From Candidatus Nomurabacteria bacterium (GTDB lineage Bacteria > Patescibacteriota > Minisyncoccia > Phycocordibacterales > UBA9973), in NCBI GenBank assembly GCA_016186435.1, contig JACPLQ010000001.1, forward strand, positions 1 to 59,212: a stretch of 59,212 nt of DNA. Reading direction: 5' to 3'. Below, one piece after another: positions 13,329-15,488 of this stretch (position 1 is the stretch's first letter; every line of letters begins with the position of its first letter). Under the pieces are notes generated by a model, which did no database searches, was not told where the DNA came from, and was given only the letters and a program-made list of their open reading frames with translations. Position numbers and translations under genes: made by a program.

Positions 13329-15488
13329 ATGGTTAGCCAAAAAGATGACACAAAAGATGGCGTAAAAGGCTCCGCCTTCGCTAAAGTTGCGGCGAGCGCG
13401 CATCATTACGATGCCTCTGACATCTCCGTTTTAGAGGGCTTGGAGCCCGTACGGCGCCGTCCCGGCATGTATATCGGCACGACGGGTCCCGAAGGCATGC
13501 ACCACCTGGTCTGGGAGATTTTTGACAACTCACGCGACGAAGCGATGGGCGGTTTTTGTGACGACATTGAGATAGTCATGCTGCCGGGTAATCGCATTCG
13601 AGTCGCCGACAATGGCCGAGGTATTCCGGTGGATATGCATAAAAAGACAAAAGTCTCCGCGCTGGAAACTGTGATGACCACGCTTCACGCCGGAGGCAAA
13701 TTCGGCGGCGAGGGGTATAAAATTTCCGGCGGGCTTCACGGCGTGGGCGCCTCGGTGGTCAACGCCCTATCCTCGTACTGCCGAGCCGAAGTGCATCGCG
13801 ATGGCGGCAGATACGCGCAGGAGTATTCGCAAGGCAAGAAAAAAAATGGGGTAAAAAAAATTGCCGCATCGAAACTGCACGGCACCATAATAACTTTCGA
13901 GCCGGACACGGAAATTTTTGGCGACATAAAATTCGACTGGCACACTATCGTTAATCATATCCGCCAGCAGGCATATTTGGTAAAAAAACTCAAGATCTCC
14001 ATCATTGATGCGCGAAACTTGGAGGTTCTTCCTCCACTTGGAGGAAGAACCTCCAAGTCGGAGGCCGAGGATGTTTTTTATTTCAGAGATCTTGGCTTAG
14101 AACTGCCATCCGTATCTTTTTATTTTGAAGGCGGGCTCATATCTTTGGTAAAGTATTACAATAAATTTCAAAAGCCGATACAGAGCAATATCTTTTATGT
14201 TGAGAAAGAGCTGGACGGGGTAGGAGTGGAAATTGCCCTGCAATACGTGGATGATATTGCCGACAGAATTTTTCCTTTCGCCAATAATATTTACAATCCG
14301 GAAGGCGGTACACATGTGACCGGTTTTAAGACTGCACTAACGAGGACTTTAAATATGTATTGCAAGAAAAATGAATTGATGAAGGAGTCCGAAGGGGGAT
14401 TTACTGGCGAAGATGTTTTGGAAGGACTTACCGCTGTCATTTCCGTAAAGCTTCGCGAAATACAATTTGAGGGACAGACAAAAGGCAAGTTGGGAAGCGT
14501 GGAAGCCCAGGGCGCGGTAGCGACAGTCTTCGGTGAGGCATTCGCGAACTTCTTGGAGGAAAATCCGGATGAAGCAAAGTCTATAATTAATAAATCAATT
14601 CTTGCCCTAAAAGCCCGCAAGGCGGCTAAGGCCGCAAAGGATTCGGTTTTAAGGAAAGGCGCGCTTGAAGGCATGACGCTTCCCGGCAAACTGGCCGATT
14701 GCCAGAGCAAGGACGCCTCCGAATCCGAACTTTTTCTAGTAGAGGGAGACTCCGCAGGAGGTTCCGCCAAGCAAGGCCGCGACAGGCGTACTCAAGCGAT
14801 ACTGCCTCTCCGCGGAAAAATTTTAAACGTTGAGCGCGCGCGCATAGACAAAATGCTGGCTTCCAAAGAAGTGAAATCCCTAGTGATTGCCCTAGGGACT
14901 TCCATCGGGGATACTTTCGATTTAGAGAAAATGCGTTATCACAAAATAATAATTGCGACCGATGCCGACGTTGACGGCTCGCACATACGCACTCTGCTCC
15001 TCACTCTTTTTTACAGGTATTTCCGACAAGTGATAGATGCCGGATATATTTACATTGCCCAGCCGCCGCTTTACAAAATAAAAAAGGGCAAAGAAATTTC
15101 TTACGCTTACACCGATGAAGAAAAAATGAAAGTAATTGGCAAAAATGCGGACGTGAGCGAAATAAACGAAATAGATAATGAAGAACCCCTACCCGACCTC
15201 CCCCTTAGTAAGGGAGAGGAGAAAGCCCGCCTGCCGGACGGGCAGGGAGGGAGTCTAGAATCTAAACCTAACAAAGTTCACATCCAGCGTTTCAAAGGTT
15301 TGGGCGAAATGAACCCCGAAGAACTATGGGAAACGACCATGGACCCTAAAAACCGCGTGCTCAAAAAAGTAAATATTGAAGACGCCGAAGAAGCCAATAA
15401 AATTTTTGATATTCTTATGGGCTCCGAGGTCCCGCCTCGAAAATCTTTCATTCAATCCAATGCGAAGCTAGCCGAGATTGATATTTAA
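13329..15488 (+). CDS. gyrB: DNA gyrase subunit B
   Basis: GHKL ATPase, transducer and TOPRIM motifs ([56 protein letters not shown]). It carries two palindromic in-frame inserts. Confidence 0.95.
14018..14057. repeat. perfect 18-bp inverted repeat inside the gyrB coding sequence
   Basis: cttggaggttcttcctcc-actt-ggaggaagaacctccaag, encoding [13 protein letters not shown]. Confidence 0.9.
15197..15246. repeat. two GC-rich palindromes inside the gyrB coding sequence
   Basis: cctccccctta-g-taagggagagg (15197-15219) and cctgcc-ggacg-ggcagg (15230-15246), encoding [20 protein letters not shown]. Confidence 0.8.

Follow-up and report, generated by a model that had tools for sequence, protein, structure and literature searches.

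Why does a perfect palindrome lie inside the reading frame of an essential gene, where so stable a stem is unexpected, and what keeps it there? The question is raised by gyrB of a Candidatus Nomurabacteria bacterium (G000, the source genome; NCBI GenBank assembly GCA_016186435.1, 706 kb in 29 contigs, about 41% GC), in which 42 nt of coding sequence form a flawless inverted repeat. The window analyzed here is the whole 59,212-nt stretch of contig C9 (JACPLQ010000001.1); G-numbers denote genomes, P-numbers database relatives of GyrB, and C-numbers contigs. The gyrB palindrome is very probably a doublet of a short hairpin family, similar to the hairpin-forming doublets (REPINs) of repetitive extragenic palindromes (REPs). 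The family belongs to an IS200-like gene for a Y1/HUH transposase that resembles the REP-associated tyrosine transposases (RAYTs) and presumably mobilized it.

The host gene is a 719-aa coding sequence at positions 13329–15488 of the + strand, identified from its open reading frame (ORF), its translation and its matches in Pfam and the Protein Data Bank (PDB). The precomputed Pfam domains are HATPase_c, DNA_gyraseB, Toprim, and DNA_gyraseB_C, and E values against GyrB chains of the PDB go down to 1e-100. The palindrome, a feature without strand at positions 14017–14058, reads ACTTGGAGGTTCTTCCTCC-ACTT-GGAGGAAGAACCTCCAAGT and amounts to a stem of 19 bp closed by the 4-nt loop ACTT. A repeat search returns it as two arms of 20 nt (14017–14036 and 14039–14058) that are 100% complementary, with 2 nt between them. 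A previous sequence-only reading had described an 18-bp hairpin at 14018–14057; its coordinates and description are correct, and the repeat proves to be one base longer at each end. By chance, 0.07 occurrences of the 18-mer are expected in the window. The stability suspected earlier is also real, as a 101-nt RNA segment folds at -44.6 kcal/mol, compared with -26.3 ± 3.4 kcal/mol in 200 shuffles (z = -5.45; 0/200 as good). In the gyrB frame the 42 nt make up 14 codons, from the last two bases of the N230 codon through K243 to the first base of codon 244, and the encoded peptide is proline- and glycine-rich, loop-like and located in a surface loop. E. coli GyrB had been described as having no such segment, and phmmer alignments to E. 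coli-type chains end near query residue 204, just ahead of the insert. The proposed position between the ATPase and transducer regions is borne out by mycobacterial GyrB (3ZKB), in which a long insert specific to that lineage lies at the same place, where the GHKL ATPase domain meets the transducer domain; this loop is known to tolerate inserts.

The palindrome can be parsed into two copies of a 23-nt unit, ACTT-GGAGG-TTCTT-CCTCC-AAGT, which consists of a 4-nt foot, a 5-bp inner stem and a 5-nt loop, forms a perfect 9-bp stem and, read by eye, contains no stop codon in any of the six frames. The left unit (14017–14035, + strand; ACTT-GGAGG-TTCTT-CCTCC) lacks its last 4 nt and equals the first 19 of the 23 nt of the units at C2:42009–42031 and C28:6723–6745, and of the reverse complement of C16:11829–11851. 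The right unit (14036–14058, + strand; ACTT-GGAGG-AAGAA-CCTCC-AAGT) is complete with its loop inverted, is identical to the + strand of C16:11829–11851, and is the full unit recovered in the genus-wide pattern search described below. Its first 4 nt (14036–14039) are the loop of the long hairpin, and the doublet measures 42 nt because the two units share one 4-nt foot (19 + 23). The 18-mer is thus present elsewhere in its own genome, on C2, C16, C28 and other contigs. The family numbers 7 units in G000. Besides the standard units at C2:42009, C16:11829 and C28:6723, the copies outside gyrB include a foot variant with ATTT...AAAT at C2:42231, a loop variant at C14:16440, ACTTGGTGGCCTTGCCTCCAAGT at C10:12898, and a compensated stem variant, ACTTGGAAGCTTAGCTTCCAAAT, at C18:5252. 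All four copies in G000 that are not attached to Y1 genes lie in frame in housekeeping ORFs (gyrB, purH-like, ribF-like, and pth). They are read as KLGGSSSKL in the purH-like gene, NLEVLPPS in the ribF-like gene and KLGGKATKS in pth. Single units are therefore read in two different frames, indicating that the family is not a peptide motif, and single units also occur outside genes. The sequence-only reading had offered a very recent insertion of a second palindrome family as one possibility. A dispersed family, distinct from the GC-rich palindromes of the window and tied to a Y1 gene, is indeed present; that the insertion was very recent is not established. Its age is ambiguous because the arms match four other copies in the genome, yet the same 42 nt occur in two lineages whose gyrB genes differ by 23–26%; the gyrB site is either old and actively kept or was hit repeatedly.

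Palindromes of other kinds are found near these copies. The purH-like gene carries tandem in-frame 23-nt hairpins of two families at C28:6697–6745, GTTGCTAGGCAAGGCCTAGCAAC, followed by TAA and then ACTTGGAGGTTCTTCCTCCAAGT. Within the window, GAGCGAGGGGAGTCCTCGCTG at 39884–39904 represents another hairpin family, the one that borders the Y1 paralogue of contig C1, and further strong palindromes lie at 51280–51328, 53623–53648, 58910–58955 and 59020–59049. The one at 53623–53648 (CCTGCCTGCCGGCAGG type) resembles in-frame palindromes of pth in G004 and gyrB in G085.

We compared the gyrB site among relatives. Most genomes of the genus have a short, empty loop from IIDAR to DVFYFR, reading E(W/F)DNKKG(L/M)NEE or GYEGKINDS, similar to DYEGKIDLD in the outgroup; 18 of the 24 genomes first sampled and about 100 of 120 database GyrBs have no element. 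Loops of the ACTTGG family are found in G000, P0007, P0008, P0018, G005 (=P0019), P0026, P0031, P0033, P0040, P0046/47 and G024 (=P0117), and the 17–18-aa loops of G002, G012, G023 and P0120 are possibly decayed versions. P0007 and P0008, each represented by two assemblies, encode the same 14-aa peptide as G000. Synonymous changes that break the palindrome in such orthologues had been proposed as the sign of protein-level conservation, and none were found: 0 of 42 nt differ. Over the rest of gyrB, 23–26% of nucleotide positions and 47–55% of conserved-residue codons differ between G000 and P0007/P0008, and the chance that 14 conserved-residue codons would all be identical is 1.4e-4 to 1.5e-5 per pair. 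The absence of any difference, with about half of such codons changed elsewhere, indicates that the palindrome is conserved, or renewed, as DNA.

Sister variants occupy this site in six further lineages, as a palindrome in five of them (G005, P0018, P0026, P0031 and P0046) and in imperfect form in P0040. It is perfect in G005 (ACTTGGAAGCCTTGCTTCC-AAGT-GGAAGCAAGGCTTCCAAGT, a unit that recurs in its own genome at C20:10487), in P0031 (CCTTG/CAAGG loops, centre AAAT) and in P0046 (GGAAG stem, CTTCG/CGAAG loops), and P0018 shows a compensated change (TTAGAGG...CCTCTAA). In P0026, 15 bp remain, P0040 has two mismatches, and in G024 the right unit alone is intact. On the seven distinct gyrB-site sequences, 97% of the cells of the 19 pairs are paired and 8 of the 19 pairs changed on both sides, a result reached by 0 of 500 shuffles, with slid controls giving 0–1. 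In the inner stem the covarying arms show no G-U intermediates, and the G/A change there is present at all four related positions together, as expected if both units copy one hairpin. The peptide variants (VL/RT, AL/KA, ALL/SKA) change pairwise as reverse-complement arms demand.

These features also raise the possibility that the structure itself works in gyrB. It would act either as a cruciform feeding back on gyrB (and topA) under negative supercoiling or as an mRNA stem that slows ribosomes or marks cleavage, the mobile family being its origin only. The conservation of all 42 nt between diverged genes, the covariation of the arms, the high stability of the stem, the family's occupation of a single fixed site in topA (two genomes) and in gyrB (about 11 lineages), and reports that E. 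coli REPs are gyrase targets (PMC3733652) all agree with such a role. However, most GyrB genes of the genus manage without the element, as counted above, and it has decayed in G024, P0026, P0033 and P0040. The same doublets occur in pepN, purD, purL, rseP and ileS, where the supercoiling logic does not apply, and unrelated palindromes fill the same loops. We therefore consider a structural role improbable as the explanation. Rfam yields no match above its gathering score, the best being mir-642 (31.9 vs 90 bits), a chance miRNA-like hairpin.

Occupation of the site is patchy on the GyrB tree (152 sequences, loop masked), which is shallowly resolved. Element bearers are scattered among empty-loop relatives. 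Explaining the trait takes 10 changes, and branches with a Shimodaira–Hasegawa-like approximate likelihood ratio test value of at least 95 force 5 or more of these. A sister relationship of G000 and G005, under which one inherited insertion could account for both, has the support of only 10% of bootstrap trees. Repeated gains or segment transfer are read more easily from this pattern than losses, because the short loop looks ancestral. The closest GyrB in a set of 5.8 billion proteins is 85% identical over residues 150–330. The same loop holds unrelated inserts in other lineages: a clean 6-aa insert, L(P/S)AQAG, in G085, P0002-6, P0104 and P0115, whose DNA (fetched for G085 only) is a GC-rich near-palindrome, and yet another insert in G015. 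Two further observations concern the gene and its neighborhood. Some relatives have a GyrB of about 1132 aa (G024 C3:30000–34600; P0040, P0117), with an intein (PF14890, Intein_splicing) after EGDSAGG in Toprim in addition to the loop hairpin. Directly downstream of gyrB in the window, an 85-aa ORF (15714–15971, + strand) looks by eye like a RelE/ParE-type toxin, and ParE or HicA genes adjoin gyrB in relatives.

The distribution of the family was determined with the pattern ACTTGGARG-N5-CYTCCAAGT, allowing at most 1 mismatch, with the reversed pattern as control. The pattern is present in 16 of 101 genomes of the genus (1–14 sites each) and in 22 of 100 other genera of the order (up to 45 sites), and the reversed control gave 0 matches. 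Genomes differ in their variants, which have the loops TTCTT, CCTTG, TCTTG and TTCAA, or a GGAAG...CTTCC stem with TCCGA or CGAAG. This breadth bears on the suspicion that the palindrome is an assembly or amplification artefact (a fold-back chimera), since chimeric reads can produce palindromes. The element is in frame. Four other independent assemblies, two each for P0007 and P0008, share its exact sequence, and NCBI, ENA and Logan assemblies of further samples, from several studies, contain variants. The family is present in 38 other genomes. An artefact is accordingly so unlikely that we rejected it.

Nineteen doublets of 42 nt were found in the loci fetched from the genus, centred on ACTT, its complement AAGT, or a variant with one or two of the four bases changed. 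All of them are read in one frame, x-LE(V/A)LPP-x-GG(K/R)(T/A)SK-x. Their hosts, as confirmed with Pfam, are PepN, RseP (M50), PheT, IF-2, IleS (two doublets), PBP2, TopA, DnaE, PurD and LigA; PurL, RnpA and a Jag-like protein were assigned by eye. Doublets are in excess within genes because 42 is divisible by three and 23 and 19 are not. In IF-2 the doublet occupies the same site in two genomes, and so it does in TopA, with different variants. The TTCTT variant resides in gyrB and purH in G000, in pepN and topA in G106, and in rnpA in G005; an identical TTCTT/AAGAA doublet is found in gyrB of G000 and, in G106, in pepN and topA, the gyrB loop of G106 being empty. The same doublet in different genes across species indicates insertion polymorphism of one sequence. 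As a separate observation, IleS of G065 (C12:588–3610) contains a histidine-phosphatase domain (PF00300, residues 114–289 of the fragment) within the synthetase, together with its two 42-nt doublets and a terminal unit.

The common frame invites the explanation that a peptide module is conserved for its benefit to GyrB and other enzymes, the palindrome being a by-product, because 19 of 19 doublets use one of three possible frames and the Pro/Gly-rich sequence suits a surface loop. Against this, the 14 codons show no synonymous differences, although elsewhere in the gene roughly one conserved-residue codon in two has changed; single units use two further frames (LGGSSSK, LEVLPPS) and also lie outside genes; and the variants change in the pairs that the arms require. 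A peptide module is thus very improbable, and we rejected the peptide motif. Local template switching (quasi-palindrome conversion), which is known to create and homogenise perfect hairpins (PMC8794818), fares no better. In this scenario one gyrB arm was copied locally and no mobile family was involved. Template switching could help to keep existing arms identical, but neither arm is present in the common empty loop, identical 23-nt units exist at 4 or more further loci in G000, among them the flanks of a Y1 gene, and doublets in unrelated genes of other genomes are composed in the same way. The armless empty loops and the identical units elsewhere in the genome contradict template switching as the origin, and a palindrome arising de novo in this way, which we hold to be a very slim chance, was rejected as well.

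The sites that carry doublets in other genomes are often not empty in G000. At the IF-2, TopA, LigA, IleS, Jag and PepN sites its orthologues often hold other palindromes, and the net size differences at those sites are +7/+8, +14 and +15 aa rather than a uniform +14. IF-2 (C8:12403–12897), TopA (C27:2113–2583), LigA (C26:6476–6961) and the Jag-like protein (C11:7081–7548) of G000 have other Pro/Gly-rich in-frame inserts, for example PLLQKEGVGGG and LPPSPLQGEGQGGE, which probably belong to the GC-rich palindrome family of the window. The purH site is empty in G009, holds the two tandem 23-nt hairpins in G000, a 43-nt perfect palindrome in G020, and other hairpins in G012 and G001, and the pth site of G004 holds CCTGCCTGCCGGCAGGCAGG. 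Two causes probably combine to make such loops hot spots: selection spares only permissive loops, and the elements may prefer existing hairpins as targets.

The link between the hairpin family and a transposase comes from the remaining copies in G000. The unit at C2:42009 has a TATAAT box on one side and, on the other, the start codon of a Y1_Tnp gene whose product begins MSSRKIAFVPGEYYHVYNRG...NPNHFHFLI, the unit at C2:42231 falls within the same gene and encodes KFGGSSSKL, and the unit at C16:11829 directly follows the stop codon of a Y1 C-terminal fragment, whose first residue continues the C2 gene precisely from its break. Put together, the halves fit without a gap (...EKFMQ|RLGTGYTMYFNERNKRSG...) and match the arrangement of the uninterrupted G003 orthologue. 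G000 has seven Y1 genes, which are 31–55% identical to each other. Each has a hairpin of its own sequence alongside, on both sides in 6 of 7 cases (including the genes on C2/C16, C18, C26, C10 and C1) and downstream only on C24, and each of these hairpin families has 3–15 copies in the genome. Hairpin-flanked Y1 genes are also found in G003, G005, G015, G024, G085 and G106. In relatives a third copy of the hairpin, sometimes with a fourth, lies inside the gene about 215 nt from the upstream copy; here and in relatives, the paralogues each have their own hairpin, most on both sides and many also internally. At the break of the C2 gene, the right end of an IS30-like element (CGTCGGGCGGGG) is common to C2 and the end of contig C16. 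This element (C2:42346–43480) has an HTH_38 domain, a 333-aa ORF and at least one more copy at the end of contig C17, and the assembly joins C2 across it to unrelated sequence.

The Y1 enzymes are roughly 210–230 aa in size. The C18 paralogue is intact (216 aa) and matches Pfam Y1_Tnp PF01797 at 35.4 bits (cut-off 23). Its AlphaFold model is of medium confidence (predicted local distance difference test score 61, predicted template modeling score 0.64). Foldseek aligns the model with IS608 TnpA (2A6O, E 2.9e-4) and TnpA-REP (4ER8, E 2.4e-3), and all of the top 20 matches are Y1 transposases, including ISDra2 TnpA. By sequence, the single Y1 protein found no match in the PDB, and a profile found only an insignificant ISDra2 match (E 0.14). 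Across 9 paralogues and orthologues there is no variation in the HUH motif (H77 and H79 in N-H-F-H-F) or at Y137 (within Y-[IV]-x-[LKGY]-N), and from this pattern these three residues are the presumed catalytic ones.

Family membership, linkage to Y1 genes, in-frame positions, DNA-level conservation, covariation of the arms and patchy occupation are observed directly. From them we infer that movement or renewal of the copies is the work of the Y1 enzyme, and we likewise infer the place of its cuts. In the mechanism that we propose, the Y1 enzyme would recognize the hairpin on single-stranded DNA and cut at the junction of foot and stem. Such a cut would fit the way in which the doublets divide, as ACTT|core|ACTT|core|AAGT in G000 and as ACTT|core|AAGT|core|AAGT in G005. 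Units or doublets would then be copied to new places or would overwrite resident ones. In a genome that is almost all coding, the survivors would be the copies that keep the frame in tolerant surface loops, as a 42-nt doublet would and a 23-nt unit would not. The GyrB copy, which sits in the variable ATPase–transducer loop and is translated there, would be such a survivor.

Several observations weigh against this explanation. Neither activity of the enzyme nor any event of excision or insertion was seen. In G000 the IS30-like element splits the cognate Y1 gene, so current activity would need a paralogue, for example the intact C18 gene, whose hairpin is slightly different. A cognate Y1 gene for the ACTTGG family was not found in G005 (79% complete) or G024 (86% complete). 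The C18 protein scores below the cut-off of the NCBIfam RAYT equivalog NF047646 (17.7 vs 80 bits), the fold search does not tell a RAYT from an IS200/IS605 TnpA, and the hairpin has no GTAG or CGTC tag of the described REP superfamilies. At the gyrB site, the doublet is no clean 42-nt insertion: it replaces about 6 residues (WDNKKG) of the common loop and makes it 7 aa longer on balance, and all lineages share one left boundary (AR-x-LE). A replaced segment and a fixed boundary are not predicted by simple cut-and-paste. They could reflect one old event with maintenance or segment transfer, site-directed replacement, or insertion with convergent trimming.

One form of site-directed replacement would go further than the mobilization proposed above. 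Y1-dependent copy-replacement may keep writing the intragenic hairpins, which would then not be remnants of random insertion, with resident copies or proto-sites in fixed protein loops being overwritten by the current master hairpin of the genome. This would explain the shared gyrB boundaries and the replaced segment in independent lineages, copies that stay flawless and unchanged between genes about 25% diverged, and the joint shifts of stem and loop variants at all loci of a genome. We regard it as a rather unlikely, speculative extension. If true, it would amount to transposase-driven gene conversion inside essential genes, and the hairpins could also be co-opted in gyrB and topA as supercoiling-sensitive cruciforms.

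The closest mechanistic relatives of the Y1-associated hairpin family are the REP/REPIN–RAYT systems (PMC3116915, PMC3337134), or REPtrons, such as E. coli YafM/TnpA-REP (4ER8) and the Pseudomonas REPINs (Bertels & Rainey, 2011, PMC3116915; Nunvar, 2010). In both, a short hairpin repeat flanks a Y1/HUH gene, the hairpin differs from paralogue to paralogue, two inverted units fold into a longer hairpin, and the family is dispersed within the genome with variants that track the genome. The family described here differs in having no GTAG tag, a foot of ACTT/AAGT in all variants, and a perfect 9-bp stem with a 5-nt loop; some hairpin families of other Y1 paralogues in relatives do contain GTAG...CTAC. 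Unlike in REPINs, the two units of the doublet share a 4-nt foot without a spacer. Copy number is low (7 units here, 1–45 in relatives), the copies lie mostly in genes and in frame, even inside the transposase gene, in contrast to extragenic REPs, and the Y1 protein fails the RAYT equivalog cut-off.

Intragenic REPs are themselves known. GTAG/CGTC REPs and their head-to-head dimers have been described inside known genes, many of them for replication and repair, where they encode about 20–30 residues presumed to lie in loops; Rickettsia RPE-4 and RPE-6 are among them (Di Nocera, De Gregorio & Rocco, 2013, PMC3733652). The host list found here (GyrB, TopA, DnaE, LigA, IF-2, tRNA synthetases) fits that description. 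Our elements come from another phylum (Candidate Phyla Radiation (CPR)/Nomurabacteria) and another sequence family, and the doublet is smaller (14 aa). All doublets here use a single frame, orthologous sites are filled by genome-specific variants, and the DNA is identical across orthologues that are about 25% diverged. Another parallel is Rickettsia palindromic element RPE-1, which Ogata et al. reportedly described in 2000 as about 100–150 bp long and which is said to have no known transposase. It too is selfish palindromic DNA inserted in frame, within a reduced genome, into essential genes whose proteins tolerate it at their surface, whereas the element here is 42 nt and linked to a Y1 gene. 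IS200/IS605 elements (IS608 TnpA, 2A6O/2VJV; ISDra2, 2XM3) supply the best structural matches of the Y1 protein. Recognition of their subterminal hairpins on single-stranded DNA, with cleavage beside a tetranucleotide, serves as the mechanistic model. Unlike in those elements, gene and ends are not repeated here in near-identical copies (the paralogues are 31–56% identical), both ends are the same perfect hairpin without distinct left and right ends, and the hairpins are dispersed rather than the gene. A search of one literature library found no paper joining RAYT or REPIN with Patescibacteria.

The element is thus REP/REPIN-like, Y1-associated and intragenic, and intragenic REP dimers are already in print (Di Nocera, 2013). 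What the gyrB locus adds is an orthologous-site series of frozen, compensated and decayed palindromes, a synonymous-site test, a single doublet frame and replacement with a fixed boundary. It extends REP/RAYT-type biology to the CPR and into essential genes, with a compact system of a 23-nt hairpin and an enzyme of little more than 200 residues. Nature supplies numerous pairs of enzyme and hairpin, as well as alleles of gyrB, topA, dnaE, ligA and infB with the site filled or empty. There are practical consequences for the annotation of CPR genomes, for alignments that use gyrB as a marker, and for locating insertion-tolerant loops in conserved enzymes. The interest of the locus rests on DNA-level maintenance in an essential gene and on the mechanism of a possible renewal. 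With codons that are frozen, arm-compensated or decayed according to lineage, the gyrB site is an unusually clean natural experiment, through which the upkeep of REP-like populations, by re-insertion, conversion or selection, becomes directly testable.

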